A stretch of DNA of 60,205 nt, filler included, from Sphacelaria rigidula (taxonomy: Eukaryota): the NCBI GenBank assembly GCA_964200075.2. It is 10 parts of 10 records of this genome, joined end to end, with 100 filler letters (N's around TTAATTAATTAA, not from the genome) between each part and the next. Parts side by side here need not be neighbours in the genome. Positions count along the whole stretch, not along the records: positions 36,186 to 42,115 come from CAXNAA020023404.1; 9 more parts are not named here. One strand, written 5' to 3'. This document shows positions 5,932-60,205 of this stretch, piece after piece (positions within the stretch are counted from its first letter, which is position 1; the number at the start of each line of letters is the position of its first letter). A program made the translations under genes and the position numbers. The notes beneath the pieces were generated by a model that saw only the letters and a list, made by a program, of their open reading frames with translations, did not search any database and was not told the DNA's origin.

Positions 5932-6031
5932 NNNNNNNNNNNNNNNNNNNNNNNNNNNNNNNNNNNNNNNNNNNNTTAATTAATTAANNNNNNNNNNNNN
6001 NNNNNNNNNNNNNNNNNNNNNNNNNNNNNNN
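5932..6031. other. Artificial scaffold spacer N44-TTAATTAATTAA-N44 (also 11963-12062, 17994-18093, 24025-24124, 30056-30155, 36086-36185, 42116-42215, 48146-48245, 54176-54275)
   Basis: Nine identical 100-bp spacers with stops in all six frames separate ten pieces of 5931/5930 bp. Confidence 0.97.
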
Positions 6032-8278: not shown

Positions 8279-8738
8279 TGTCATGGCTCGATACTCACCA
8301 CCTAGGTGGGAAGGTGCCAGTTCAGTGGGCACGGGGGGCTTGCGGGCCCAAACGCAATCATTAGTATCGAGGCCATTGAGCTCGATTTTACCAAGTGTAG
8401 AGTCAGCCACCGCACCAGTGGTCAGGTGGCATACCGTGAGCCGCGCAGGCTGCAAGACAAAATGTATTGCATGAAGGTCAGGCTTACATTTGTGAAGACC
8501 AAAGACTTCTCTGAGATAGCAGTCCGTGATAGTGTTAATGCTTCTTGTCTTATTGGCAACCGGCTGGTAGCTGCTAATCGCGCGTTGAGATAAGTTCCCA
8601 AAAAGACTGTGCCCGAGTAGGGGAACACTGTCGAAATCAATCAGACTCAGAATGGTCCATGACCTGTCGGGCTAGACAACACAAGAATATGACACATGGA
8701 ATCTACTCGACTGGACAATAACCGATAAATCCGGAACA
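8279..8738 (-). repeat. Gypsy LTR (460 bp), copy 1
   Basis: Preceded by purine tract GGGGGA; starts TGTTCCGGATTT, ends GACA; homologous to 41400-41863. Confidence 0.75.
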
Positions 8739-9432
8739 TCCCCCCAGCTTTTGAATAAGGCTAAGCAAAAGAAATGTGGGAAACGAAGCCTGTGCATCAA
8801 CACTTGAAATAAGGAAACGAGAAAAACCTGCCACTAATGTTGCAGGGGAAAACTCGGTATCTAATAGATAGGTAAACCCCGTTAGATGGGGGAAACCCTA
8901 TCCGTTGGGAAAGGAAAAATATTTTTAGCGCCCTTCCCAATCAACAGAAACCGCAGACAAGTGCGATCGCTGTCGTTTTCCCGGGATCTCAGTTAGACTG
9001 GAGAACGACTAGCTAATTAGCTTCATCGCACGTCGACACCTTAGATCAGTTACACTGAATTCCGGCGTAGTGCGGGGCTTTAACCACATCCAACTTGGGT
9101 TGGATTCGCTAAAAACAACCTTTTCACGAACTAATCAATAGTTACAGGAGTGCAGCTTTTGGGAAGTGCTTTCCTGTAACTACTGATGTTTATGCTACGA
9201 AGAATAGAGCCCATGCGCCTTGGCTCATATATGTGTTTGCATGCTACAAAATGGGAACCAGACAAGGCCAAGGAACGACAAAAAAAATGACAAACAAAAA
9301 CAGGCACACTCGCAATTCACAACTGATACGGTACCAACAACGCCTCTTGCTAATTTTACAACCCTCTTCCCTGTGCAATGATATCCTGTACCATTTCATA
9401 TGCCGACTATTCCTAGACATTCCCACTCCATT

Positions 9433-11472
9433 CTAAAGTCGGGGTCCTTTTTCCCGCGTTAAGCGATCTAGTTCCTGGCGGGATAGCTCCTCCCAGTCTC
9501 CGTGTTCGTATCGTACTCGCCAAAAGCGACTCCCGTAGTCATACACCTGACCCTTGACCTTGAGACCTCGAAAGTCTTTCCAGAAAGTAACACCTATTGG
9601 GAAAAGTTTCAAGGCGTCACTGCGCGACAGGGGAGCGGGGCGCTTCTTGGAGTGCGGGGGCGGATTGGGTGCAACCGCGAGGTTTTACAGGTGCCAAAGT
9701 GCGTGGAAAGCGTCTAGTTCCAAAGGGGAAAAGCTGTCTCGGAGCTGGCTCTCTGGCAACCAGTCTGACACCTTCCCCTCCAACGACCTGGCCTCGTATT
9801 CCCATTGTTTCGTGCCGGCCATGGAGTAGATCTCTCGGCGGTCCACTCAAGTGACGAACTCGTGAGTTTGGCGAGGAGCGGTGTTGGATTTGCAATCTGA
9901 GCCCCATACGTATTGAGCGAACTCGTCGGCTATCCAGTGCCTGAGATGCGGTGGGCGAACATGGAAGGGTTTCACGTCAGAGACTGCTACTCTACATGTA
10001 CGACGATTGCGCCCCTGGATGACTACCTCTACACTGAGGCCGGTCATCAGCACTTCCTTCACTCTCCAGGGCCCCGTGTACCCTTCGTGTTGCAGTTTCC
10101 TACCCTTACCGTCCCGATGTATTGTGCTGTCTGATTCGCGTACCATGACCAGATCCCCTTCTCTCGCCGCCACTCCTGGAGAAGGTCTTAAGATTGAGGC
10201 GTTCATCTTCGCACGAGTCAATGCTTTCGCGGCGTGTCTTTAGTCAAGAGCTAGACGTACCTCCTTGAGGTTTTGTCTACGTTGCTCCACGAAGGCATCC
10301 AGAACGTTACTTGATTCCTTCTCCTGGTTCAGGGGAATGAGCGAATCTAGAAACGTGCGGGGTTCACGACCGAACAGAAGCTCAAATGGGGACATGTCTG
10401 AGGGTAGGAAAACGTCTGGCAAGGTACGCTTGATCCAGAGCGCTGGGGAGACATACTCGTCCCATCTCTGGGGCCACGACCTACACAGCTCTGCCAGCAT
10501 ATCTAGTAGCCATCCCCCCAGCCTCTCGACTGCTCCTTGGCCTCTGGGGTGATCAGAGGGCCCAAAAGCAATGTCTGCTTTCAGCCACCTGCACAGGTGG
10601 GTCACCACCTCAGCTCTAAATTCCTTTCCTCCATCACTGCGAATTTTGCGGGGGACGCCGAATGTCAAGCAGAGTTCAGCAAGGATGCGAGCTACACTTT
10701 CAGCCTGCTTCGTTTGAAGCGGGAAGCCGAAGGGAAACTTGGAGGCTCGGTCTACGATCAAAAGAATGTACTTTTTGTTCGTAAGCGATGCAGTGTCTAT
10801 CCTCAGCAGGTCCATCTCCAACTCTTCCCATGGTTCTACGGCTTGTCCCGGTGTCATTGCAATCTTACAGCTATTGGACCTCTTCCTCGTGTGACAGCTG
10901 CAAGATAGCACGTTCAGTCTGGTATCCTTTACAATTGACGGCCAGACACAGCGATCTCGCATCAAAGACAGCGTGGCTCCTACTCCGATATGACCATGTA
11001 GGGAGTGTACCAACGCCAAGATGTCAGGTACCATAACCGAGGGGATGGCTAGCAACGGTTTCTTAGTGTCCTTCGTCAGCCACGCCACACCTTGATCGTC
11101 CAGACTGTATAGGCGTGCAACGTCGTCATTCACCGTAACCTTGACATTATTTTCCGTACTGGATTCCCCTGGTACCTCGTCGGCACTCACCACAATCTCG
11201 CAGTCTGCTTCACTCGTATTGGGTACCTTCTTTCCCCCCTGCACCTCGTCTGTACTCACCGTACTCTCGCCATCCTTGCCATTCGTACAATGTTCCTTTT
11301 CTCCTCTTAGTATCGATCTCACCTGCCCCAGGAACGGGTCCTCCTCCTGTGCGCGTTTCAGCGCGGATGCGTTGGTCAACATCTGGATCGCCCTCTTGAA
11401 TGCCGACGTGTCTACTGCAGTTTTCACCGTAGACGAGGGTTTGTCCCCCCCGGCGATGAGCACGTCTTCCAC
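9433..11472 (-). pseudogene. Gypsy integrase pseudogene with C-terminal chromodomain-like and Tudor-like segments
   Basis: ORFs 10240-11472 and 9847-10221 continue in frame through stops to VDRREIY..WEYEARSLEGKVSDWLPESQL and FPIGVTFWKDF..VKGQVYDYGSRFWRVRYEHGDWEELSRQEL; final TAG at 9433-9435. Confidence 0.85.
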
Positions 11473-12062
11473 TTCCGGCCTCTCACTGACCGGGGCAGGG
11501 GTGATGGGGCAGGGGTGATGGGAGCAGGCTCCCTCGTTGGGGCTTTAATAGGTGTAATACCTACCGACGGCTGAAGGTTCATCCGAACATCTGTGGGCAC
11601 AGTATGTATGCAAGCAGCGCCTGGGAACTGCAAGCGTACGGACGGGCGGCGAATTCTGGGGGAGCGACGGGGTGATTCGTCTTCAATCGACGCGCAGTCA
11701 GCGAACGGCAGCGATCGTGGGGTGCTTTCGTATCTCGCCTCATCTACAATCTTGCCTTCTCCCGTGAAATCAAAAGGTGACAATTCCGACAACCATTTTC
11801 CATCTAATTGTGGACCGCGGGACCTTGCGGTTTCCGAGGACGTGCTGGCGGTGAAATCGTCGGGGAATGAGTCGTCTATGTCATCCCCTGGTCCCTGTTG
11901 ATGAGGCAGGCGGCACAAAGCGCCAGGTAACACGTGTTGAGTTCCCTCCCGCCATCGAAGTTNNNNNNNNNNNNNNNNNNNNNNNNNNNNNNNNNNNNNN
12001 NNNNNNTTAATTAATTAANNNNNNNNNNNNNNNNNNNNNNNNNNNNNNNNNNNNNNNNNNNN

Positions 12063-16200: not shown

Positions 16201-17128
16201 GAGGCAAATGCCGAAGCTACTCTGAAACCGAAACTACTCCAACAAATACGAGGGCCAACCTTCATTTCATCACCACCCTGAAGAGGTTCCTCAGCAAAAA
16301 CATTACCATCTCTCCCGGGACATACTGCCACGATCCGCTTCGAACGGGAACTGAACCAGAATCACCTAATAATGAAGCACAGCACGCCAAAATCACCGGA
16401 GGGAATTTATCCAACAATGTGTACACAATTTTCTTCACTCTTGATTACGTTATCAGAGCGAGTAACTGGCGACGACAACAAAGATGTTCGTGTTATCCCG
16501 TCACAGGTCAATCAATATACAAATATGTGGAATCACACGGTAATGTACACCCTCCCGAACCATGCACCCTACGTCCGGAAACTTGCTGCTCTAGAGGCAG
16601 CGCGACGGGAGCAGGTATGGTTTGCGACAAATCCGTGATCTTTGCCAACGTTCAACTTTCTCATCAAGCTCACGACCAGCGTGCTAATCAAGCTCACTTC
16701 ACCGGCGATTGACGCGGAAGGCGCGTTCCAAAGTATGTCGTAATACATTAGCAGCCCGAGTCGGATTTGCTCGGTGACAACAGATACCACTACATCTCGG
16801 ACGGGAGATCTCAATGCTCGAGGCCCTGACGAAACACCTCAGGGTGTACAGCATGAAGTATGGCTTCTCATTGATGGTATGGGGGCGTCGCATGCCTGCC
16901 GTGAGCTGGCTTGTGATGGCAGTTGAGCCCCTCGGAGATCATTGAGTGACACCCCTCGATTAAGGGTGTAATGAGTGGGAGGACTGTATGCTGAGGGGAT
17001 CGCATCATGGTTCCAAACGCCCTAAGATCGACGTTTCTCGGAACCAATCGAGCCAGTCCCTGCAGGGACCACGCCCCTGACCCTAACCTCAACCCTGACC
17101 CTGACCCTGACCCCGAACATAAGGCTGT

Positions 17129-17802
17129 TCAAGTCATTGGCGCTGGGGTCGGTGCCGGCGTTGGCGCCGGGGTCGGTGCCGGCGTTGGCGCAGGGGTCGG
17201 TGCCGGCGTTGGCGCAGGGGTTGGTGCCGGTGTTGGCGCAGGGGTCGGTGCCGGTGTTGGCGCCGGGGTCGGAGCCGGTGTTGGCGCAGGGGTTGGTGCC
17301 GGCGTTGGCGCCGGGGTCGGAGCCGGTGTTGGCGCAGGGGTTGGTGCCGGTGTTGGCGCCGGGGTCGGAGCCGGTGTTGGTGCAGGGGTCGGAGCCGGTG
17401 TTGGTGCGGGGGTTGTTGGTGCTGGCGTCGGTGCCGTAGTTGGTGCGGGAGTTGTTGGTGCTGGCGTCGGAGTCGGAGTTGGCGCCGGTGTGACGGGAGC
17501 GGTGGTCGGCACAGGGGTCGGCACGGGAGTGACGGGAGCCGTGGTCGGCGACGGGGTCGGCACAGGTGTGACAGGGGCCGCAGTCGGCGACGGGGTCGGC
17601 ACAGGTGTGACGGGAGCCGTAGTCGGCGCCGGGGTCGGCACAGGCATGACGACGGTAATCAAGGTCGGCGCAATTGTCACAGGGGCGGTAGTCGGTGCCG
17701 GGGTCGGCGCAGGTGTGACGGGAGCCGCGGTCAGCGCGGTTGGTGCAGGTGTGACGGGAACCACAGGCGCAGTCGGGGTGGCCGTGGGTGCTGGAGTTTT
17801 GA
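17129..17802 (-). CDS. Terminal exon of a Pro/Thr/Ala-rich (PTPA)n mucin-like or cell-wall glycoprotein
   Basis: Open frame of TPAP and [11 protein letters not shown] repeats with varied third codon positions, ends PAPMT*; acceptor gttgttgctgcaaaAG. Confidence 0.75.
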
Positions 17803-19621: not shown

Positions 19622-20595
19622 GTACGTGCCGCATTTGTTTCGTTGTGTTTTTTCGGCGTGCCTCTGAAGACCGAGCTAAATGTGAAGCGTGTCAGTGAAG
19701 AGAGTCTGATTTCCCATCATATTTGGGGATAGAACGCCCCCCGCTAGCCTAAAGAGTTCGATGCGTTGTGGTTCCCATCTGTCTCCGCCCGATCGCATTT
19801 GGGATTGGGACGTCCCCCTCTCGCCCATAGGTCGGCCGGCTTACCTTCACATAAGGATCGCCCGAGGAACGACTGCGTGAAGACATGAGGGCATCTTGTT
19901 TTGCCCATCACCAAATCAGTTGCGCGCCTGATGATGAATATGCGAATTCTCCCCCTCCCCTCCCCCCGATATTGTTCGTATCAACCTGCAGAACGGTGAT
20001 ATAGTCCTGAGCACCGGTGAAGTTTTCACGTCTCCTGTGATTTCACTAAAAATATCCGGTACAGCCTGCACGGCACCGGATCTACACCATGCTCAAGCTT
20101 AACATTTTGTACAAATAAAGTACGCAAGGCCGAGATTCTAACTTAAATCCATCGGGCGCGAGACCCTGCCAAATGAACCCCCGAGGAGATCGGAACGTCA
20201 GAATGGTTTTATATCGCAACGCCCTCCCCATGCGTCGGAGAGAAGCGTGACTTTTCCATGAGCAGAGTGCGGATAGGCATCCCCGTCTTGCTTCATTCTC
20301 ACCGACGCGTTGTTCAATGCTACCTGTCATCGCTGCAGTGGTGGAGACATAGCATGGCCCACCGTGTGCATTTACCTTCGAGAACAGATAAATGCGGGTT
20401 GCAAACAAAAATGGCTGTGATTCTCTCAGTGTCATGCTGCCACGCCTCGGACCGTGAGGCGGATTTTTTGCTTTGGTCGAATCCACTTGTGCGGAATGTA
20501 CAACGGGGTATTTGTCAGTCACCAGTCAATCCGCACTAGCATGCCCTAAGCTGCACTCCAGTACAGACAATAATTGCGCCGCGTACCGCACCGCT

Positions 20596-21140
20596 GGTCG
20601 CCCCGGTGGCTCAGTTGGTAAGTTCGAAACCTTTTGACGGTTGGGTCGTGGGTTCAAAACTCGGAGCACTCTGGGATTTCTTCCCACACAATAATGCCCA
20701 ACAGTTGAGAGCGACTATGTCGTGGGTACAAGAAATTCGACTTGAAGGGTCGACGAGGGAAAGGAAGTGCTCAACACACCCCGGTGGCTCAGTTGGTAAC
20801 CTCGAAACCTATTGACGGTTGGGTCGTTGGTTCAAAACTCGGAGCGATCTGGGATTGTTTCTCACACAATGCCACACAGTGCCCAACAGTTGAGAGCGAC
20901 TATGTCGTGGGTACACAATATTCGACTTCATGGTCGACGAGGAAAATGGACTGCTGAACCCCTCTAGCGGTAAAAAAAAAGAGCAAGCACCGCAGAAGGA
21001 AGGTGGAGGATAAAGAACAAGCGAAAAAAGAAAAAAATGTGTGATGCCCTTCCTCCTGTGTGACCCTGGCTGATGCGCCCACATGTACTGAAAGGTGCAG
21101 GCTGGCGTCCAGAATAGAGGGGACGACAACACACACACAC
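20596..21140 (+). mobile_element. Tandem pair of tRNA-headed SINEs (short unit 20596-20775, long unit 20778-21140)
   Basis: A box TGGCTCAGTTGG and B box GGTTCAAAAC twice; body shared with 48258-48579 and 51866-52552. Confidence 0.8.
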
Positions 21141-29298: not shown

Positions 29299-29371
29299 GC
29301 TCGCAGAGCTCCGTTGGTAGAGCGCGGCTCTGATAAAGCCGAGGTCCCGGGTTCGAACCCCGGTGTGAGTA
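29299..29371 (+). tRNA. tRNA-Ile-like gene or pseudogene, anticodon GAT
   Basis: Full cloverleaf: GCTCGCA/TGTGAGT, GCTC/GAGC, CGGCT-CTGATAA-AGCCG, CCGGG-TTCGAAC-CCCGG; followed by T6; invariant U8 and A14 substituted. Confidence 0.7.
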
Positions 29372-29384
29372 TATTTTTTCCTCA

Positions 29385-29457
29385 GCACCCCGGTGGTATA
29401 GCGGTACTGCTCCCTTCTTCAGGTCGGCAAATGACGGTTCTATTCCCGGAGGATGCG
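29385..29457 (+). pseudogene. Degenerate tRNA (Gly-like)
   Basis: GCA...GGATGC acceptor ends, TGGTATAGCGG A box, GGTTCTATTCCC B box; anticodon arm broken. Confidence 0.4.
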
Positions 29458-29611
29458 TTCGGATTTTTCTGAATGTATCTGATTTCCGCGATTGAGAGAG
29501 TGAGAACGGGAGTAGCACAAGCTTGGCACAAGAGGTGGTTTGACGAGAGTCCACGTGATGCAGGAGGGCTGATCTAGTCTGTGATACCAAGATGCAAGCC
29601 GCGCGCTGTGG

Positions 29612-30055
29612 GAGAGATGAGTTGGCGGGACAGTGCAAGCACACCTCGAGCATGTTCAAATTATTGATGCTGTACTGGGATTGCACACCCTAGACAAAAC
29701 ATGACACTGTCAAGGTGTACTGCGTACAGTATGGGATCTAATGTCTGTTGCAACAGACACAACTGTTCTGCTGCTGAACCGCACGTGCAGATTGTTTCCA
29801 CCAGTAGCTGAATGCGACAGTGCAAATTAACCATTGTAATAGCGTGTCACCTCTCGCTTTCCCACAGTTTTACAACAACACTGTGTAGCCGCCTTTTGTT
29901 ATTGGAGAGAGATGAGTTGGCGGGACAGTGCAAGCACACCTCGAGCATGTTCAAATTATTGATGCTGTACTGGGATTGCACACCCTAGACAAAACATGAC
30001 ACTGTCAAGGTGTACTGCGTACAGTATGGGATCTAATGTCTGTTGCAACAGACAC
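29612..30055. repeat. Direct repeat, 149 bp identical, 295-bp period, running into the scaffold end
   Basis: 29612-29760 equals 29907-30055. Confidence 0.9.
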
Positions 30056-31600: not shown

Positions 31601-31921
31601 CGTGCTGGACGTGACGTCTACAAATGGATATCCTGTACGCCACCGCACTTACTACTCCAGGTGCACCCAATGGCCGGCAAAAATACCTGAAGATACTGTA
31701 GACACAACAATGTCACGGCATCGGGGGCGGGGGGAAGGGGGGAGGGGGGGCGTACTCATTTGTTGCTTGCCTTAGTCGTTTGACCATTGACCCCTTTCGA
31801 GACGGAGGGGGGAAGGGGGGGGGGGGAAGAGAGCAAATAAGGTATGTGTACGTCTTACAACGCGTAGCGCCACTGGAGGTCCTGCAGTGCACATAGGATA
31901 TGACTCTCCATGTATGCGTGG

Positions 31922-32161
31922 TGCTACGGTAGGGGTGCACAAATATTTTCTGAGGTTCGAATTGTTGGGAGCCTTCTACCTCATCCAAAACTGCACATGA
32001 AATATTTAAGCCCGCCACAATTAGCATCCTACTGGGATAGGGATATTCCGAGTGAATTTCACAACAGACATATCCTGATCCATAATCTCGTGTAGCTCCA
32101 AACTTTGGAAGCCCCTGAATGAGGAAGGTTTGGGAACAAATGTGCAACCCCTACCGTAGCA
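31922..32161. mobile_element. MITE family B
   Basis: TGCTACGGTAGGGGTGCACA ... TGTGCAACCCCTACCGTAGCA; other copies at 36363-36581 and 54121-54175 (truncated). Confidence 0.8.
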
Positions 32162-32634
32162 GGACTCGTAGCCTACCTCATTCCGGTGCGAGCTGGTGAC
32201 TTTAATGATCGCAGCATCATGCACACTCGCTATTTTTTCGTGACGTTGATTGCGCGATGATTGACGTCTTAGGAAGGAACATAAGGAATATGGGCTATCT
32301 AGATCTTGCCCGATATTGACAGTCATGCAAATACAACCTTGGGTGTCAACTGGGAATGAGCGAAACTAGAATTAAGCGACAAAGCAACATAAAAAGACGC
32401 AAAACCTCGAGCTATTCACCTCAGGAGTTCACAACGTATCTTGGCATGTGATGGACCTATCCGTGTTCGTTCCAACACGTGAGAGCTTTGAAAAAAACAA
32501 CTGACAGCCGGTTTTAAAGCTGAGGATTTGGTTTTTCAAATAGGAGGATAGCCCGACAAAAAACACACGTCGTATCCACATCAATTCTTCAAAACACGGT
32601 TGCATTGCTTTATTTACGGGGGATCATTAACAGT

Positions 32635-35700: not shown

Positions 35701-36362
35701 AGGCGTGTCTTCGCAAATATGTTTTCGATCGAGGAAGTGCGGTAGAAAACAATTTTTTCCGATCTGATAGGTCATAGTTTCTGAATACATAATGATGGTT
35801 GAAATCACGACGTATTAGATCCGACTTCTGTTTTCCACCGCACGCTTTCGATCGAAAAACAAGGTGCTAAGCCACTGCCTTAGCACATATATATTTTCAA
35901 TCCACATAGAGTGCGGTGGAACTCATGTGAGCAAAATCATTTATTTCGCGAGTTAGGTCCGGGCGAATTTTCAAGCTTCCGATGACACTTTGCACAGAAT
36001 GCCCCCCCCCCCCCCCCCCACGGCCGGGTTGGGGGGGGAAAACCCCCCTGTGTCTAAACACGAAGAGGGCGGTGGGGGGAAAGAGNNNNNNNNNNNNNNN
36101 NNNNNNNNNNNNNNNNNNNNNNNNNNNNNTTAATTAATTAANNNNNNNNNNNNNNNNNNNNNNNNNNNNNNNNNNNNNNNNNNNNGGGGAAAGCACTGTT
36201 TTAGGCTTGAACCTCATCTCGGAGTTAAACCTCAATTCGCACAATTTGTTGTTAAATGGTTTCAAAATCTGCTGACAATATACTTCTTCCCCAATCCTCC
36301 AATGAATCATTTGCGACCCCGAGATTTGTGCCGTGGGCTCAAAGCATGATACTTGAGCATGA

Positions 36363-36581
36363 TGCTACCGTAGGGGTGCACACCTAGTTTCTGAGGTTTG
36401 AATTGTTGAGAGCCCTCTGTTATCCCAATAACACCTCATGGAGTACGCGAAAGCACGCCACGATAATCCCGCGAGTAAACTTGAAAAGGGGAATGTCCTG
36501 ATCTGTATTCTTGTGTAGCTCCAAACATTAGGAGCTCGCGAATGAGAGATCTGGGCCCAAAGGCGCCACCTCTGCGTAGCA
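36363..36581. mobile_element. MITE family B
   Basis: TGCTACCGTAGGGGTGCAC ... CGTAGCA, flanked by TGA on both sides. Confidence 0.65.
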
Positions 36582-37791
36582 TGACTCTCTCGAGACAGGA
36601 TACGAGCTACATAGACCAGCCAAGATACACAGTTGACGGTTGAACCGCTTTGCCCTTGAGGAGTTTGGAGCTGAAATGTTTGGCACGAGATTTGAACCGT
36701 CAATACGGGGAATGTAGCGGAAGTAGTCAAGAAAGACAAACAAAATAGCGTTGGGGCGATCTGAAATTTGTGAAAACAAATTATGTAATGACTAGATGGA
36801 GAAAAAAAACTATGCTTGCTTCCGTGAGTTTTTTCAACTCACGTGCAGAAGGTCCTTGTAATAATGTTTCGGCTGAAGTTTCCTAAAATTACCCGGGGCA
36901 TTCCACTTTTTGTGTGACACCGCTTCAACCCGTGGTCGAACCGGTACAGGCAGAGGATCCTGGAAAATGAGTTTGAACTTTCAAATGAGGCTGAAGTCAT
37001 CTTCCGATAATTCACATATCCCCCGGAACAGTTTTGCAAGAAACAATCAACTGAGGAATATTGTTTGCGTCTGTTGAAACTTTCTCTACCTAGCTTGCCT
37101 TGTCGCGAGTTGTTGCTCCCGCCTCAGGGGCCAGATGTGTCCCCTTTCGCGCAGCCGAAACGGCTCTCTCCAGGTGAGAGGAGCATAATGCGTCGAATGC
37201 CTTCGATTTCCATCAAACATTGTTGCACGGTTTTGCCGAACTCCCTTGGAATGATAGTCTAGAAGGCATATTTTTTTCTCTTTATTTCTTGGTATGGATG
37301 GCATGCTCCTTGAACTCTGTGACTACGGGTTCGAGAGATCGAGCTAATGTGACGGAAATAATAATATTCATAATATTTTCTTTCATGAGAAGTATGGTGC
37401 CGCCATTGGTGTTTTGGAAAATAATTTCTGTTATCGCTGGATACGTTTTATTGTCAAAAGGGAAATTTGATAAATGGGAATCTCTGCCCCTTGCGAACTT
37501 TCCCAGGGCTCGAAAAAACTCCTGCATAGTTTTCTTCAAATATGACGGAATCCGATGAAAAGTGGCTTCACTCACCTGGTAAGAGCCGTTTCGAATGTAC
37601 GATACGAGACACATCTGGCTGTAGAGACCGGAGCAGCAACGCGTGACAAGGCAAGGTAGGGGAAGTTTCAATAGACAAATAAAATCCTCGGTAGTTAGTT
37701 TTGCAGAACTCTTCCGGGGAAAATGCGAATTGTTTGAACCCGGTTTCAGCCCCATTTGAAAATCCAACCTCATTTTCCAGGTTTCTTTAAC

Positions 37792-38207
37792 AGCCTGGAT
37801 CCGTTTTTGAGGTTCAACATTTCAATGAGTTTCAACTCGAAAACAGTGCTTTCCCTGACCTAAAGTCATGACCAATGAAATTCACATGGACGACTCATGC
37901 CCTCCAACCTCCTTAAAAACTATTTTGGGGGGTTGCCCGTCTTCCGTGCCCCCAAAGCGTATGTGCGAAAACACCTTTCCGCCTCGATATCGGGGTGAAA
38001 AAGGGGACATTTTTAGCCCGAAATTGATGCTTCCGCATATTCAGTTTGGGGGCACGGAAGACGGGCAACCCCCCAAAATGGTTTTAAGGAGGTCGGGGGC
38101 ATGAGGTCGTCCATGTGAAATTCATTGGTCATGACTTTAGGTCAGGGAAAGAACTGTTTTCGAGTTTAACTCATAAAAATGTTGAACCTCAAAAACGGAT
38201 CTAGGCT
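37792..38207. repeat. Long inverted repeat (arms about 165 bp), foldback-like
   Basis: 37792-37956 is the near reverse complement of 38045-38207. Confidence 0.88.
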
Positions 38208-38609
38208 CTGCTCTGTTCGTAAGAGATATGTTATGAAGAGATAATGTCATAACTTGATGAAAGAAGAAAACCCTGGATGCTGTCATGAAGATTTCTTGAC
38301 TTGCCTTGAGAATGTCCGCGTCAAGTTTTCGCTCAAGTTTCCTGAAATTGGGTAGGGCATTCCATTTTATGTGTGACACCGCTGCACCCTGTTATCTACC
38401 TGGTATGAGAGGCCTCCGCAATGCGAGAAGACGGCTTAGAATTTTGATTGATACTCTTTTTTGCAGAAATGGGTTCAGCTATTGAGATCGTATATTGTTA
38501 TGCGGTGCAATCTTTTTTTCAGCTGTGTAGAGAGAGTGGTCAGCCTATGGTTTCAAGAGAGAACACATGGGTGTGTTCACTCGAGACACCTAGGCACTTC
38601 GCAATTAAT

Positions 38610-41600
38610 CCCTGTCGCTGACTGCGCGTTAGTAGAAGACGAATCACCCCGTCGTTCCTCTAGAATTCGCCGACCGTCCGTGCGTTTGCAGTTCCCCGGT
38701 GCTGCTCGCGTAGGTACCGTGCCCACAGATCTTCAGATGGATCTTCAACCGCCGGTAAGTCTCACGCCTATTGAAGTCCCGTCGACGGAGCCTACTCCAA
38801 TCACCCGTGCCCCCATCTGCGAGCGGCTGGAAGTGGAAAAAGTGCTCACTGCTGGGGGTGATAGCCCTTCAACTCCGGGGAAAACCGCGGTGGACACGTC
38901 GGCAGTCGAGAAGGCAAATACAGATGTTGACGTCCGCCTTCACGCTGAAACGCCAACAGGAGGAGGACGCCTTTTTGGGACAGGTTATATCGATACTGGG
39001 GGGAGAGGGGGTGCACGGTATGGGTGATGAGGATGGCGAGAGTACGGTGGATGCCGATGGGGTGCAAGGGGGAGAGGAGGTGCCCAGTACGGGTGATACA
39101 GACGGCGAGAGTATGATGAGTGCCCATGAGGTACAGGGGGGAAAGAAGGTGCCCAGTACGAGAGACAAAAACGTGAAGAGTACGGTAAGTGCCGACGCTG
39201 CGGGGAAATACAGTCTGCACGTTCAAGGCGTGGCGTGGTTTACGAAGGACAGCGAGAAACCGTTGCTAGCGATTCCCACCACTATGGGACCGATATCTTG
39301 GCGTTGGTACACACCTTTCATGGCCATGCCGGAGTAGGTGCCATGCTGTCTCTGATTCGCGACCGCTTTCACTGGCCGTCGATGATCAAGGATACGAGGC
39401 AATACGTGCTGTCTTGCAGCTGTAGGAGGACAAAGAGGGCTAGTAGCCGCAAGACTGCAATGACCCCAGGACGAACAGTAGACCCCTGGGAAGAGTGGGA
39501 GCTGGACTTGCTGAGCGTAGACACAGCATCGCTAACGAATAACAAGTATATCCTCTTAATCGTAGATCGAGCCTCTACATTCCCATTCGGTTTTCTCCTC
39601 CAGATGAAGCAGGCTGGAAGTGTAGCCCGCACCCTTGCCGAGCCATGCTTGGCATTCGGCGTACCGCGGAAAATCCACTGTGACGGAGGAAATGAATTTT
39701 GACTCGAGGTTGTAATGCACCCGTGCAGATGGCTGAAAGCAGACATCGCTTTCGGACCCTCCAATCACCTCAGGGGCCAAGGAGCTGTCGAGAGGTTGGG
39801 GGGATGGCTGCTAGACATGTTGGCGGAGCTGTGCAAGTCGTGGTCCCAGAGATGGGACGAGTATGTCTCTCCAGCACTCTGGATCAAGCGTACCCTGCCT
39901 GACGTTTCCCTACCCTCTGACGTGTCCCCGCTCGAGCTCTTGTTCAGCCGTAAACCCCGCACATCTGTACATTCACTTATTTCCCCATCCCTCAGGACGG
40001 AATCTAATTAAGGACTGGATGCGTTCGTCGAGCAGCTCAAGCAGAACCTCATGGAGGTACGTTTGGCGTTGGAGAAGCGGCAGGCCGCATACTAATGACA
40101 GGCCTTAGTGTAGAGGTATAATAGTCCTTCCGGACCGTAAGCGTTGTACACGTAGGATAGCCGTCTCAGAGGTAAAACCCTTCCATGTTCGATCGCCACA
40201 CCTTAGGCACTCCATAGCTGGCGGGTTTGCCCAACACGTATGGAGCGCGGACTGGAAGACAACCATCACACCTCATCAAACCCCGAATTCATCACCTTCG
40301 TACATTGCCGCGAAATCTACTCTAGGACAGGCAAGAAGCATTGGGAATATAAGGCGAGGACTCCGGGGGGGAAGGTGTCGGACTGGTTGCCTGAGAGTAA
40401 GCTTCGAGAGAGTTTTTCTCCTTTAGAACTGGACGCTTTCCACGTACTTTGGCACCTGTACTATCCCGCAGTTCCACCCGAGCCGCCCTCGCACTCGAAG
40501 AAGCACTCCGCTCCCCTGTAGAGCAGTGATGCCTCGAAGACTTCCGGAAGGATTTTGGGGGTAGCAAGGTGAAAGGTCAGATGTATGACTACGGAAGCCG
40601 CTTTTGGCGAGTACGATACGAAGATGGAGACTGGGAGGAGCTATCTCGCCAGGAACTAGAGCGCCTAACGCTGAATAGGGGACACTGAACGCAGACTACA
40701 GTGTGAGCATTTACGAGTAGCCATTGTATGATATGTTATATGATACCATTGCGAGGGGGATGGGGTAACAAAATAAACGAGCAAGTAGCTATACATCGCT
40801 GGCACCGTACATTTCAGTGATGAATTTTGGGTGTTCCCGTCTCTTCTTTTCGTCGTTTTGATATTGTTTACTTCCCATCGGGTAACATACGGGTACATGT
40901 GTGAGCCGAGGCGTGTGGGTTCTATTCCGTGTAATATTGGCGCCAGTAGTTACAGAAGAGCATCCCGCACAGAAGCTGCACTCCTGTAACTATCGATCAG
41001 TTCGTGGAAAGGTTGTTTCCAACGATCCAGCCAGTGCTGGATATGGATAAAGCCCCGCACTACCCCGGAATCCGGTGTAACTGATCCAGGGTGTCGGAGC
41101 GCGATTAGCTAGCTAGCTAGTCGTTCTCCAGTCTAACTGAGATCCCGGAAAAACAACAGTGACCGCACTTGCCTGCCGTTTCTGTCGTTGGAAAGGGCGC
41201 TATAGATTGTTTTTCTTGCTTAGCGGATAACGTTTAACCCTGCTTAACAGGGTCTACCTATCCATCAGATCAGCAATGACTTTCCCACTGCAATGTAGTT
41301 ATGCAGGTTTTCTCGTTTCCCTTTCAGGCGTTGATGCACAGGCTTCGTTTTGTTTCGGCCCTTCCGGTCCTTGAAATATATACATATATGCTGGGAGGAT
41401 GTTCCGGATTTCTCGGTCATTTTCCAGTTGACTAGGCTCTGTGTGTCGTACGTTTGCTATGCTTCGTATCCGGTGGGTCATGTGCCATTTTGGGGTCTGT
41501 ATGAATCCGGTTTGATGTTGGCGCTCACGCTCCCAGAGTCTTTTGGGAACCTATCTCAACCAGTACAACAGCAACTAGCCTGTTCGCCGATTATACAAGA

Positions 41601-41863
41601 AGAATCTACGCCATCCTCGGAAGAGCTTTTCGGAGCTGTCTCTGGTCTTCATCTAAAGCCAGCCTAACTTGCATGCAGCTGATGCTGTTTTAAGCACCCG
41701 CTTGACACACTGCAGGTCGAGATGACTGCATGAACTTTACTTGCACGCATCTATACCATCGAGCTTGGTCGGACCGTGGTATTTGAATGTGTTCGAGCAC
41801 AGCAGTGCTCGGGTGCCCATGGGCTGGCACCCTTCACCTCTAGACGACCACCGATTCGCGACA
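38610..41863 (+). mobile_element. Decayed Ty3/Gypsy LTR retrotransposon, copy 2 (same family as 8279-11962)
   Basis: Frameshifted integrase (HTFHGH..SCSC, ELDLL, HCDGG, GAVERL), WEYKARTPGGKVSDWLPE chromo-like, KGQMYDYGSRFWRVRYEDGDWEELSRQEL Tudor-like, PPT, LTR. Confidence 0.92.
41400..41863 (+). repeat. Gypsy 3' LTR (464 bp), copy 2
   Basis: GGGAGGA|TGTTCCGGATTT ... ATTCGCGACA; homologous to 8279-8738. Confidence 0.78.
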
Positions 41864-41940
41864 GTTGCTAATCAGTATTGTGGTCAGTACACCACATTGT
41901 GGCTGTGGAAACCCGAGTTCAATTCTTGGATTGGTCATCA
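41864..41940 (+). tRNA. Full-length tRNA-His(GUG) copy with CCA-like (TCA) end, probable retrocopy
   Basis: D stem GTAT/GTAC, anticodon arm CCACA-TTGTGGC-TGTGG, T arm CCGAG-TTCAATT-CTTGG, acceptor TGCTAAT/ATTGGTC, then A plus TCA. Confidence 0.8.
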
Positions 41941-42063
41941 TGTCGCGAATCGATGGTCGTCTAGAGGTGAAGGGTGCCAGCTCATGGGCACCCGAGTACT
42001 ACTGTGCTCAAACACATTCAAATACCACGGCCCGACCAAGCTCGATGGTATAGATGAGTCATC
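41941..42063 (-). repeat. Inverted copy of the last ~116 bp of the LTR
   Basis: 41941-42056 is the reverse complement of 41748-41863 with 6 transitions. Confidence 0.92.
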
Positions 42064-42289
42064 CTACGATAGGGGGGGGGGGGATTTGGTTGCACGAAAA
42101 ACGAGGGTCATAAATNNNNNNNNNNNNNNNNNNNNNNNNNNNNNNNNNNNNNNNNNNNNTTAATTAATTAANNNNNNNNNNNNNNNNNNNNNNNNNNNNN
42201 NNNNNNNNNNNNNNNAGGCTCGCCTTTCCAATACCGTCCCTGTTATTCCTTACCAGACATTTTACCAAAATAAAGAAAAAAATAGGTGA

Positions 42290-48257: not shown

Positions 48258-48579
48258 CCACCTTCCTTCTGCGGTGCTTGCCTTTTTATTCTTTCTCGCG
48301 AGAGGGGTTCAGCAGTCCCTTTCCCTCGTCGACCGTTAACCCTTAGACCGCAAGGGTAGTTCATCTGAATCATGCATACTTTTTTCCAGTAAAATAGGTG
48401 CCGATTCAACAGATGACCTACTCTCGCTGCCTAAGGGTTAAGTCGATTTTTGTGTACCCACGACATAGTCGCTCTCCAATATTGGGTTTGAAAAAAATCC
48501 CAGATCGGTCCGAGAATTGAACCCACGACCTAATTGTCAGAAGGTGTCGAGGTTACCAACTGAGCCTCCGGAGCGACCG
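48258..48579 (-). mobile_element. tRNA-headed SINE carrying a nested MITE
   Basis: Reverse complement of the 20778-21010 SINE sequence. Confidence 0.8.
48340..48437. mobile_element. 98-bp piggyBac-type MITE
   Basis: TTAA|CCCTTAGACCGCAAGGGTAG ... CTACTCTCGCTGCCTAAGGG|TTAA; absent from the other SINE copies. Confidence 0.85.
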
Positions 48580-50056
48580 GCACTGAGAGAGGAAGAACCG
48601 AGAGATGGGAAGATATCGAGGGCGTACTCATTTGTTGCTTGCCTTAGTCGTGTGATCATCGACCAGTAGCCACGGGGAGAGATGGAGAAAGAGTTCGAGA
48701 GGAAAACGGAAGAGACGAATCCCAAGGAGGAAGTAGAATATTTACACGGGTTACTTGATTCCAACAATTTGAAGTGTTCAACTGTTTGAACGCAAAGCAG
48801 TCCATTCGAGTCCATGTATGCCAATGCATCACAAGCCAATTTCGAGTCGGTCATTGTCAGAATATAAGTAAAAAATGATCTGTACGGTTCCTCTAAACAT
48901 AATGAATGGTCTCGAACTCGAAGCGGCCGATGAGCGGATTCACGAGAGAGCCATTCGAACGAAGAAGCTGGAAGAGCTAGGAATAGATCCAAGGCTTTCA
49001 ACGGTGTACAGTGTCAGGGTGGGATAGGGTACAAGTCGGATATCGACACCTCGCGTACTCTGGAATAGAGATTATTTTCGCCGGTCGATATCCTAGGTGC
49101 CGTAAAAGGAATACTGAGTTTCTCTTACGGTCGATACCCCGCACACTCTCAAGTACAAGGTACTCCAGATAGCCTGATAATTGATAGTACCCTGGGGTAC
49201 GAACCGTACTCAAGCATCTTTGGTGTGCTCCACTGATGGAGGGACAGAAAGATGAGAGAAACCCACTGCGCGGATATTCCCGAATTGATATGCAATATAT
49301 CAAATGTACTGGGCAAGAGTGGATTGCAAGCTAGAGTATGTTTGGGTATGAGTGCCTTCAGTAGTCTGGTCTCCCGAGTCTCCTGAGATATCGATACGCT
49401 GGGCACCCTGGAATGCTGAGTACTTTCGCCAGTCGATACACCCTACCGACGCACTTTCGTCGCGATTCATGTATGGAACGAAGAAAAGACGAAAGTAAAT
49501 GCCTTGCTCATTCCGAAATGGATGTTAACCAAGTACAAAAAATGCTAAGGATACGGGGGGTACACAGAACATTGGGAGGGTGTTATTGCTCTTGTTACAC
49601 TGAAGTACAAAGCAGTTTGGCTGTCGATACCCCGGGTACCTACTTGGAATACTGAGTATTCCCGAAAGTCGACCGAAATAAATTCCGAGTAGTTTCGGTG
49701 GTTGATACCCTGCGTGCCCTGGAGTAACCTGCGTTTCCCGGAGCACTGGTTATTCTTGTTGTCCCTAAAACATTTAAGGTACCCCGGGGTGAATACCGTA
49801 CACCAAGCACCGTCGAACAACTCTCATACTTGGTCGATTAAAACTTTACCGGAAGTTTATTGCTTGATTTGAGTGTGAACACCGATATTCGGATCTCTAG
49901 TGGGACTGACAGAGCCACCTGCTTTTATAATAGTGTGAGAAGCACCCATTTTCATCAAAATCGCGCGCCTGCGGCGCCGATTTGAGGTCAGCCAACGCCA
50001 CACCACACGTGAGGAACACGTTGCACCCCCCTCACCCAAGGGTTCTCGCTATGCTT

Positions 50057-51865: not shown

Positions 51866-52552
51866 GTTGTCCCATTTTTTCTGGACGCCGGTCTACACCT
51901 CTCAGTATATGTGGGTGCATCAGGCGGGGTCACACAGGAGGAATGCCAACATAGCAGTTTTTCTCTGCGTTGTTTGTCTTACTTCTCCACACACGCGGCC
52001 ATTCGACTACCCCCAAAATACTCTGTTCCGGTCAACTGTTCGAGCCTCAAGAGGAATTGAACACCCCCAGAGGCTTGTTTTGCCTCTGAAGGGCCGCGTA
52101 TCCCGCGGGGGAATTTAGAGGATGCGCGGCCCTCCAAAGTACCATCTTTTTTGTTACTCTCGAGGGATTCAGACCTCAGAAGTCACTGGAGCATCAGATA
52201 CCCTCCAGAGGATTCGTTTATGACCGCACCTGAGGATGGAATACCCTCTTCTAGAGAGTATTTTACCTTCGAGATGATGAAAATCGCGATGGAGAATTTT
52301 CATAGGGATAGCCGAATGACCGCGTGTGCACCTTCCTTCTTCGGTGCTGGTCTTAATCTTTTATTGCGAGAGGGGTCGGCATGCACTCCCATTCCCTCGT
52401 CGACCATCAAGTCGAATTTGGTGTACCCACGACATCGTCGCTCTCCACTTTCGGGCATTCTGCAAGAAGGAAATCCCAGATCGCTCCGAGAGTTGAATCC
52501 ACGACCCGACCGGCAGAAGGTGTCGAGGTCACCGACTGAGCCACCGGGGCGA
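51866..52552 (-). mobile_element. tRNA-headed SINE split by a CACTA-like MITE
   Basis: Head 52552-52329 and tail 51989-51866 together match 20778-21130. Confidence 0.75.
51990..52328. mobile_element. CACTA/CMC-like MITE, second copy
   Basis: CA|CACACGCGGCCATTCG ... CGAATGACCGCGTGTG|CA; empty site ctccaccttcc is seen in the SINE near 21000. Confidence 0.8.
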
Positions 52553-58739: not shown

Positions 58740-60205
58740 AGGTGGTAGGCGATTGGACTGTTGTAGGAGTTTGTGGGTGTAGTGTGCGAGAGGAGGGGGC
58801 GAGCCCACGTGCAGCGGGGCGAGCCTTCGTCGTCGGAGCTGTCTCAAATCGGTTCCTGCTTTCCGTGCTGTTTCTCGGTGATCAGGGATCGATGATCAAT
58901 AAATAACTGGTTACGTGTGGGGCTCATATATCTCTCTTACTCGACAGTCCCGTGTCATAACGCCTGCGGCTATATGTAAAACTTCCTGTCGCATGATCCA
59001 AGAGTGGAACCACGACGAACAGTGTTCTGGTGAGATTGAAAGTGGAAGATACGACTGAGAGTGAGATGCGGTCAAGTAGTAAATGAATCGTTTCAGTTCC
59101 AAAATGCCCCTCCACGAGGCGTGATATGCTTACTGTAGTAGCGTGCCACTGAAGCCCTTGATATCCCTGAGTAGATACTTGCGTATAGCTGTGAGCACAC
59201 GCCAATGATGGAGGCAAAGAATATCACACGGAATAAAAATTGGACAGTTAACCCGTTCGGAACCCATCGGCGATAGTTTTTTGTTTGTGAATCGGCATCA
59301 TTTTGCCTTGAAAATTACTGAAAATGTTGTCGATTCACAAACAAAAAACATCGTCAGCGGGTTCTCAAAGGGTTTAAGCGAATGATAAAACCCACTCACA
59401 ATCAACTCTCTACTCTCAATCTCGTGAAAAAATTGTTGACGGACGACGAAGGATGGCACAAGTTGACCACGGACAGGTCGAACGTAGAAAGCACCGACAG
59501 ACAGCCCCGCAACGACCGCGGGTCCGGTACCAAACGCCGTCGGGAGGGAGATAGCTCCTGCTCTCGCCAGAGCTCCTCCTGCTCTCGCCAGAGCGTCTCC
59601 TCCTCCCGCCGTCAGGAAAAAGCCGGTCGCACCTCGTCATTTCGCCACGGCACCTCTGGCGAGATGACGAGGTCCTGGAGGCCATCTCCCGAGCACGGGA
59701 GAAGTGAATGTGGCGAGAGGACGACGTGCGACAGACCTTCTCAGGAGGGCGGGAGCAGGAGTAGCTTTTGCGAGAGGACGGCGTGCGACAAACCTCGAGG
59801 TACGTCACGAGGTTTGTCGCACGTCGTCCTGTCGCAAAAGCTAATCCTCCTCCCGCCCTCGTGAGAAGGTCTGTTGCACGTCGTCTTCTCGCCACAGTCA
59901 TTTCTCCTCCCGTACTCGGGAGAAGGCCTGTAGCACCTCGACCGCCTCTCGCGCTCGGGAGAGGGAAGCGGAGGAACGGGGGAGAGTGACCAGGAGTGTG
60001 ATCAAGAAGAAGGCGAAGAGCAGGCTCACGAAGAAGAACGTTGTGGGAAAGAGGAGAGTGACGCAGCTGGTGAAGGATGGGAAGGGGGGGAGGACGACGA
60101 TGAGAACGCCGGAAAGTGGGAGTACGCGGAGCCCCGGTGAGGGGGGGGGCGTTCTCATGTGTTGCTTGCCTAAGTCGTTTGATCATTGACCACGCATCCC
60201 TTTCG

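Follow-up and report, generated by a model that had tools for sequence, protein, structure and literature searches.

A tRNA-His-like sequence between inverted LTR ends of a Ty3/gypsy element in Sphacelaria rigidula: a candidate trace of primer read-through

In the genome assembly of the brown alga Sphacelaria rigidula (GCA_964200075.2) we examined a palindrome in which a complete, degenerate tRNA-His(GUG)-like sequence stands between two inverted copies of the end of one long terminal repeat (LTR), belonging to an element that we class as a Ty3/gypsy retrotransposon. The window, meaning the whole stretch of DNA that was analysed, is 60,205 nt long and consists of ten small unplaced scaffolds of about 5,931 nt (~5.9 kb) set end to end; the palindrome sits in the piece at 36186-42115 (CAXNAA020023404.1), 61 nt short of its right end. 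This is a single decayed locus that most likely preserves a mishap of reverse transcription by the element itself. The reading that we favour, with a rough probability of 45%, is that plus-strand strong-stop DNA was read through the whole primer tRNA and was then joined to a second U5 end.

A tRNA-His-like sequence between inverted LTR ends

An inverted-repeat search returned two arms of 119 nt each (41745-41863 and 41941-42059), 94% complementary, with 77 nt between them. In their strict bounds the left arm (41750..41863, +) is the last 114 nt of an LTR that we call A, and the right arm (41941..42054, -) is the last 114 nt of a second, inverted LTR that we call B; the left arm is identical to the reverse complement of the right at 108 of the 114 positions. 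All six differences (41773, 41794, 41803, 41807, 41822 and 41851) are transitions, and the sole transversion (41747/42057) falls in the fuzzy outer 5 nt of the arms. Since transitions make up 59 of the 78 kinds of change (76%) at variant places in one of the sequencing runs described below (X1), six out of six is unremarkable (chance value ~0.19), and in view of this background a bias of the repeat-induced point mutation or editing type was rejected.

At 41863 the left arm closes with ...CGCGACA, and TGTCGCG opens the right arm at 41941; between them stand GT, a 72-nt tRNA-His(GUG)-like cloverleaf and TCA. As single-stranded DNA the segment 41740-42064 folds at -149 kcal/mol, compared with -44.8 +/- 4.5 kcal/mol for 100 shuffles (z -23). 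Pairing extends past the acceptor stem by two pairs, as the GT spacer (41864..41865, +), which occupies tRNA positions -2 and -1, pairs with 41938 and 41937 (-2:74 and -1:73). The register then slips by 2 nt, the left side reading ACA-GT where perfect symmetry would need ACA-TGGT.

Rfam and ARAGORN both call the central sequence, which covers tRNA positions 1-73 (41866..41937, +): RF00005 matches 41866-41937 over model positions 1-71 of 71 with 39.9 bits (gathering threshold 29, E 4.9e-07), and ARAGORN reports tRNA-His(gtg) at 41865-41939. The acceptor stem has a 1:72 mismatch (one non-standard pair) and two G-U pairs, and positions -1 and -2 are T and G. Adjoining the Rfam match, TCA (41938..41940, +) stands in the place of the 3' CCA, one transition away from it, and no run of four T occurs from 41938 to the scaffold end. 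Two letters of the T stem differ from what most read-derived contigs carry: 41921 is A in the window and G in 20-30 distinct contigs per run, and 41927 is T in the window and C in 12-26 distinct contigs per run. The majority letters, G41921 and C41927, restore a perfect T stem.

For comparison, the tRNA-Ile(GAT) gene of the window (29299-29371) scores 58.9 bits, has no CCA and is followed, beginning 3 nt downstream, by a terminator of six T. Past this gene lies a second tRNA-like stretch (~29389-29470) and then another T-run. A functional nuclear tRNA-His gene was rejected at the palindrome, where the GUG cloverleaf is present but comes with the TCA, no T-run, the 1:72 mismatch and the lower score. 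The His-like piece does not look like a gene in place; its ends appear to be of the mature type, as had been supposed when the locus was noticed from its sequence alone (hereafter the sequence-only reading), and for annotation the locus is a false tRNA-His call. Both LTR ends lie within 2-3 nt of the tRNA's own ends, and the layout that this reading described, an LTR end, a complete tRNA-His and an inverted LTR end, is borne out by the arm count, Rfam and ARAGORN.

On the minus strand, 41864-42054 reads LTR end, TGA, antisense tRNA: right after ...CGCGACA comes TGA-T-GACCAAT..., complementary to the tRNA 3' end, and the complement of all 73+3 tRNA nucleotides is present after LTR B. LTR B with the antisense tRNA has the layout of an LTR and its primer-binding site (PBS), except that the usual ~18 nt are extended to cover the full primer. 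Read along the other strand, a tRNA followed by the reverse complement of an LTR end is the layout of a primer and the DNA made from it, and here too the initial description was accurate.

To ask how the locus stands in reads we used collapsed Logan contigs of four sequencing runs (X1-X4) from two studies, each of which contains part of the stretch. X1 and X2 come from different studies, and X3 and X4 are one sample; X1 is maybe of the assembled strain, so X2 is the independent witness. The share of the stretch's words is 0.46-0.49 in X1 and X2 versus 0.25-0.26 in X3 and X4. A single X1 contig (record 7, 358 nt, depth 11.3) spans 41723-42080 with one other letter and no gap, and two X2 contigs (records 12 and 13) cover 41723-41911 and 41882-42077 with one other letter each and a 30-nt overlap. 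The palindrome is thus present in read-derived contigs of two studies and is not a misassembly, a worry raised with its first description. No long contig over the palindrome is among those listed for X3 and X4, and that sample may lack the locus or have a diverged form of it. Palindromes are classic artefacts, this one lies very near the end of a small unplaced scaffold, and X1, if it is the assembled strain, is perhaps not independent; yet the contigs of the two studies carry the structure with one difference each and the arms differ at six places, and we give next to no credence to an assembly or cloning artefact at the scaffold end.

The host element and the far side of the right LTR

The scaffold of the palindrome carries a decayed integrase/Tudor region, copy A (38582..40781, +), whose open reading frames are broken by frameshifts and stops. 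It is 72-79% similar, in inverted order, to a second region of the window at 9346-11737, copy 1. In Pfam, the translation of 39130-39702 in copy A matches Integrase_H2C2 (E 5.8e-12) and, below the cut-off, rve (E 4e-4). Copy 1, an integrase (H2C2 and rve) with a C-terminal Tudor domain (9433..11544, -), matches rve (E 2e-09), Integrase_H2C2 (E 1.9e-08) and PTM_DIR17_Tudor (E 2.6e-07), all above the cut-offs; the Tudor domain is PF21743, with 30.7 bits (cut-off 27.2) at 9433-9684 (-). The best-kept integrase (copy 1, 10240-11544, -) found 77 relatives at E <= 0.001 among 6,153 candidates, and the three named ones are all from brown algae (Pylaiella, Choristocarpus and Ectocarpus). One homologue, P0001, has PF17917/PF17919 beside rve; both scaffolds of the window break before the reverse transcriptase (RT)/RNase H part. 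According to the part of the Ectocarpus transposable element paper available to us, one Ty3/gypsy lineage, Gypsy-10_Ec32, is distinguished by its Tudor domain (PMC12477816). On its predicted domains, the element is classed as a Ty3/gypsy LTR retrotransposon of a Tudor-bearing lineage in a brown alga.

The 3' LTR of copy A most likely begins at 41401 (41401..41863, +, 463 nt). This start is favoured because a purine run, GCTGGGAGGA, resembling a polypurine tract (PPT), stands directly before TGTTCC at 41401 and is kept in copy 1, and because depth peaks at 41392-41432; in all four runs, contigs align only from 41405. An alternative start at 41208, the point where many family contigs stop aligning, would give an LTR of 656 nt. 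A start at 40376 was rejected, as it would put the Tudor domain inside the LTR. Copies 1 and A can be aligned beyond the integrase and both end GACA; the LTR of copy 1 (8279..8738, -, 460 nt), whose bounds come from alignment with copy A, has ...CATGACA at its end, with TGGTGTCCATCC next to it. Compared locally with the tail of copy 1, the final 119 nt of copy A align collinearly with a score of 17. Shuffled sequences score 8.07 +/- 1.30 and 0 of 500 attain 17, so the left arm is a native 3' LTR end.

A segment of ~270 nt between integrase and LTR (40941-41227; ~8900-9180 in copy 1) has a word depth thousands of times that of single-copy sequence in all four runs. As this is far above the depth of the gypsy family, a very abundant short repeat shares the segment.

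Neither scaffold contains a 5' LTR, nor is a duplication of the target site visible. The sequence-only reading had taken the sequence after the LTR of copy 1 for a PBS that fits tRNA-His, and this did not hold: the best local match between the 119 nt after that LTR and the antisense tRNA scores 6, a value reached by 956 of 1000 shuffles, and Rfam finds no tRNA in the same 119 nt. Moreover, since the LTR of copy 1 follows the integrase, it is a 3' LTR, and the sequence beside it does not have to be a PBS.

On its right side, the palindrome runs into the end of an abundant repeat that resembles a miniature inverted-repeat transposable element (MITE) with the core CTACGRTAGGGG (42055..42115, +), cut off by the scaffold end. 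To the left of 42056, 73-84 contigs per run have unlike sequence, and from 42056 on word depth is enormous, partly owing to a G run. Members of this family, ~250 nt long, lie at 31916-32167, 36357-36587 and 42055-42115, sharing the terminal core, with outer ends slightly unlike; related ends were aligned at 32150-32167 and 36587-36620, and the opposite ends lie at 31916 and 36357. Possible target duplications of 3-4 bp accompany the family. An assignment of the repeat at 42056 to the C-rich tail of an RTE-X long interspersed element was dropped, after five ends had been aligned, for an element with terminal inverted repeats.

In each of the four runs, one contig consists of ~300 unaligned nucleotides, then 41405-41751 with 5-9 differences in 347, then 42055 onward. 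The joint 41751/42055 overlaps by ATCT (or TC), 2-4 nt, as a target-site duplication (TSD) would leave. We discarded the view that these contigs are an empty site without the 303-nt palindrome, since their upstream flank differs and the LTR of copy A is unbroken at 41751/2. As LTR A is unbroken there, the contigs represent another LTR with the same repeat at the mirror position, and on the simplest reading they would show LTR B beyond the MITE that split it. In that case the point of MITE insertion would have set the 114-nt arm length by chance, and the pair of inverted LTRs would be ~460 nt long. For this, both ends of that MITE copy would have to resemble each other over 26 nt or more, which is plausible for a MITE but is not seen in the two old copies of the window. 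The arm length was thus probably set by a MITE inserted in the right LTR and not by R-U5. The proposal that the arm marks R-U5 is not supported: the arm ends exactly at the start of the repeat (42055/6), and contigs of all four runs join the LTR to that same repeat end, so that the right LTR most likely continues past the insertion. The palindrome itself was also considered as a foldback element or MITE; this was rejected, as its left arm is a collinear LTR end and the apparent empty form has a different upstream flank.

Parts of the palindrome recur in the reads. Word depth is hundreds of times that of single-copy contigs over the tRNA-like part and, in both arms, over the inner ~60 nt, and only a few-fold in the outer arms. 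In X1 the depth dips at the bin of the tRNA-LTR junction (1494 vs 2263 and 3887), so most of the high-depth contigs need not span this junction. At least two other loci share it, in line with the recurrence that had been envisaged: X2 record 14, which aligns at 41897-42021 with 14 other letters, 3 gaps and unlike flanks, and a contig, present in each of the four runs, in which 41942 adjoins a copy of the MITE end. One contig of X3/X4, aligned at 41881-41900, carries tRNA-His-like units that are rearranged and partly in tandem and that lack LTR arms. The window also has repeats with box motifs of tRNA type, GGCTCAGTTGGTAA ... GGGTTCAAAAC, at 20593-20692 and 20779-20870 (+) and at 48490-48581 and 52466-52552 (-); two of them are in tandem, inside a larger repeat, and they may form a tRNA-derived repeat family. 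ARAGORN and Rfam make no tRNA call on these repeats.

Neither the arm nor the tRNA nor the PBS-like motif has a further copy in the 60-kb window. The pattern of the tRNA-LTR junction had zero matches in viral contigs and prokaryote genome contigs and one in metagenome contigs, which is GC-rich, without a tRNA and unlike beyond 22 nt. The majority-letter pattern of the T arm had zero matches in viral or genome contigs. The integrase gave four pattern matches in viral contigs, none of them confirmed, and a search for sister copies in a protein collection, with the frame that is open across the palindrome as query, gave four candidates, none of which scored.

Possible origins of the locus

In the reading that we favour, RT would have failed to stop inside the primer tRNA during plus-strand strong-stop synthesis and would have copied on to the tRNA 5' end. 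The dead-end product, an LTR with the complement of the whole tRNA, would then have been joined at the tRNA 5' end to the U5 terminus of a second LTR, whether by an end-to-end template jump, by fold-back at the acceptor stem or by end joining of cDNA ends. The composite would have become fixed in the genome, where a later MITE would have split LTR B and the arms would have drifted ~5% apart. As far as the available text of PMC8599865 goes, RT that passes m1A58 without stopping goes on copying the tRNA, and replication cannot be completed from the product. In plants, virus-like particles (VLPs) accumulate LTR fragments from aborted strong-stop synthesis, according to the part of the preprint at hand (bioRxiv 10.1101/2020.01.24.919167).

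Several features of the locus point to the read-through and joining that we infer. Joining at the tRNA 5' end would explain why both junctions lie at physical ends of the tRNA and the LTR, and copying over a tRNA complement in its folded state would produce the pairing symmetry seen through -1:73 and -2:74. Provided that the 41751-to-42055 contigs show LTR B beyond the MITE, the likeness of B to A begins at 41405, beside the PPT-like start at 41401, as expected of PPT-primed plus-strand strong-stop DNA. The six mismatches between the arms speak against a chimera made from a single molecule.

Other observations weigh against this reading. Because ACA-GT is 2 nt short of ACA-TGGT, the template jump, the fold-back and the end joining are all imperfect fits, and a later deletion or untemplated joining is needed. 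Mature tRNA-His is expected to carry G at position -1, and here this position is T. The lack of a long palindrome contig among those listed for X3/X4, with their lower word share, sits badly with LTR-B contigs in all four runs. If the LTR started at 41208 (compare the published LTR of 636 bp), B would not be a whole LTR, and two other MITE copies in the window differ over the outermost ~8 nt of their ends. Finally, the multi-copy tRNA-like part and the other loci with the junction, at least two in number, fit an inherited module equally well or better.

This last explanation is the main rival, though we regard it as unlikely overall. A copy of the entire primer, made by read-through, would have become fixed right after the 5' LTR in the gypsy lineage or its non-autonomous offspring, and family members or such derivatives would normally carry there, as an extended PBS, a complete or long antisense sequence resembling tRNA-His. 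LTR B and the tRNA complement after it would be a 5' end of this kind. Copy A would have been inserted or inverted beside it and may have been attracted by the tRNA-like gene to which the module gives rise on the other strand. As such a module would be, the tRNA-like part is multi-copy together with the inner ~60 nt of the LTR end, and the junction is found again in X2 record 14 and, in four of four runs, in the 41942-to-42055 joint. The half of the tRNA proximal to the PBS is better kept than the distal 5' acceptor strand, and the flank upstream of LTR B is unlike the spacer between integrase and LTR, as for a 5' or solo LTR. The depth dip at the junction bin counts on the other side, as most of the high-depth contigs need not span the junction. 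Moreover, the end of LTR A lies 2 nt from the tRNA 5' end, which we estimate as a coincidence of ~1/1000 if the insertion was untargeted, and targeting of genes transcribed by RNA polymerase III (Pol III) is unreported for these elements in the Ectocarpus paper and four of its supplements (PMC12477816). If the module is real, later read-through would be harmless, the opposite strand would carry a Pol III-type tRNA-like gene, and the element would tolerate its own primer or even encode it. Units of tRNA and antisense U5 would also be shed by it, which would show the strong-stop route to tRNA-derived short interspersed elements (SINEs) in a living case.

The sequence-only reading had seen in the locus the primer tRNA with minus-strand strong-stop DNA (u5-r, ~114-116 nt), joined tail to tail with an LTR, so that the arm would equal R-U5. 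The junction and the orientation that it described stand, the tRNA ends fit, and the arm does stop at 42054 within the scaffold. It is no longer the sole reading, as plus-strand read-through fits the same layout and suits the longer right LTR better. The arm end coincides exactly with the terminus of the abundant MITE-like repeat, and four of four runs join 41405-41751 to the repeat end with a TSD-like overlap of 2-4 nt, so that the arm length is most simply an insertion artefact; in addition, the argument from the PBS of copy 1 fails. We therefore consider a minus-strand origin improbable.

A tRNA-His-derived, SINE-like repeat, with a tRNA-like head and a body antisense to the LTR end, might alternatively lie at the end of LTR A or have been targeted by it. 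The tRNA-like part and ~65 nt downstream are multi-copy, as expected of such a repeat, and the outer arm is not; the X3/X4 contig with rearranged tandem tRNA-like units lacks LTR arms, and other tRNA-like repeats exist in the genome. For Ectocarpus, however, the portion of PMC12477816 available to us reports no SINE with a Pol III head. The right arm remains 95% like LTR A through the low-copy outer 48 nt, up to the MITE, which is expected of a sister LTR and not of the body of a dispersed SINE. Adjacency to the LTR end would be a coincidence, and neither an A-rich or other tail nor a TSD is visible, all of which makes this origin a poor prospect.

LTR elements of other organisms, including Ty3 and Dictyostelium DGLT-A, target tRNA genes, and the same LTR family might accordingly have inserted twice, independently, on either side of a tRNA-His gene or retro-pseudogene, each time with the U5 end inward. 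The ends are flush on both sides (2 and 3 nt), the same LTR end points inward twice, TCA is present without a terminator, and the tRNA score is low (39.9 vs 58.9 bits for a real gene), which leaves this explanation very unlikely. Just as unlikely is chromosomal fold-back repair, in which a break beside a pre-existing LTR-tRNA junction would let the 3' strand fold at the inverted repeat of the acceptor stem and copy the LTR backwards. Palindromic duplications by fold-back occur in yeast, and the present palindrome is centred on the tRNA with symmetry that runs through the acceptor stem; yet a sense tRNA 2 nt after the LTR end is left unexplained, and the copy should run into the integrase side, while the likeness to A stops at 41405 in four runs.

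Other repeats in the window and relation to known systems

The scaffolds of the window are joined by nine identical artificial linkers of 100 nt (N44 + TTAATTAATTAA + N44), the first at 5932-6031 and the others about every 6031 nt; the linker to the right of the palindrome scaffold (42116..42215, unstranded) is again N44 + TTAATTAATTAA + N44. As the window is a concatenation, repeats within it sit on different scaffolds. A direct repeat of 149 nt, 100% identical, occurs at 29612-29760 and 29907-30055; its second copy ends exactly at the scaffold end and is possibly an assembly overlap. A G+C-rich stretch at 17089-17497 is a tandem array with a 12-nt period and a 24-nt super-period. Further inverted repeats of ~100 nt lie at 59698-59797 / 59808-59907 (91%) and at 37831-37931 / 38069-38169 (85%).

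If the reading that we favour is true, the locus is a natural genomic record of the RT of an LTR element copying an entire primer tRNA in vivo, which is otherwise known from hypomodified primers in the laboratory, and dead-end products of reverse transcription can re-enter the genome. Three subjects that are mostly kept apart, read-through of primers, LTR pairs in inverted orientation and the birth of repeats derived from tRNAs, meet at this locus, and its recurrence in reads makes the link to tRNA-derived repeats testable in a finished brown-alga assembly. In addition, the near-perfect hairpin of ~300 nt could, if transcribed, feed small-RNA silencing of the family. A limited literature search, which is not proof of absence, found no description of an LTR-tRNA-inverted-LTR locus.

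The succession of a tRNA and antisense LTR sequence has a counterpart in the strong-stop-DNA model for the origin of tRNA-derived SINEs, reportedly put forward by Ohshima et al. in 1993. In that model, as here, a tRNA is followed by antisense U5/R and is present in many copies. The model is said to rest on a distant similarity in animal SINEs, whereas here the LTR parent adjoins at 95% identity and the multi-copy units are at most possible SINEs.

A described element comparable to the present one is known from Ectocarpus. In the part of PMC12477816 available to us, Gypsy-10_Ec32 is a Tudor-domain Ty3/gypsy element with LTRs of 636 bp and a 4-bp TSD, known from one full-length copy and many deletion derivatives (87 annotated copies). 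Like the element of the window, it combines an rve integrase with a C-terminal Tudor domain, and homologues with names are only from brown algae. Its LTR length compares with 463 or 656 nt here, where the copies of the window are ~79% alike; this comparison is by description. The main text of PMC12477816 makes no mention of tRNA, PBS, hairpin or palindrome, and four of its supplements none of tRNA, PBS or hairpin; single mentions of palindrome and inverted in these supplements concern other elements.

Helenus elements, which are non-autonomous LTR retrotransposons of the miniature, terminal-repeat kind (TRIMs), also tie a tRNA-like sequence to LTRs and inflate tRNA predictions, as the present locus does (Kojima 2024, PMC10886601, as excerpted). 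In the excerpt, the tRNA-like part of Helenus lies inside direct LTRs and has no PBS complementarity, whereas here the tRNA lies outside the LTRs, between inverted LTR ends, and in PBS orientation. An identity as a Helenus-type TRIM was therefore rejected, the flanking repeats being inverted and the tRNA outside the LTR ends.

Self-priming of minus-strand strong-stop DNA yields an inverted repeat by fold-back at an internal hairpin, as would fit here (e.g. PMC6088434, in the portion at hand). In that portion the fold is at the TAR/R hairpin and the tRNA would be outermost, whereas here the tRNA is central. The strong-stop fragments of VLPs and the 106B repeats (bioRxiv 10.1101/2020.01.24.919167) are LTR-sized dead-end products that may re-enter the genome, and the available part of that preprint describes for them neither a tRNA copy nor an inverted pair, unlike here. 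In retroviral primer read-through an LTR is followed, as here, by more than 18 nt of primer complement in a dead-end product, and the available text of PMC8599865 treats it in vitro and in mutant cells, describing no genomic fossil. At the Sphacelaria locus, unlike in these retroviral products, the whole tRNA would have been copied, joined to a second, inverted LTR and fixed in the genome.

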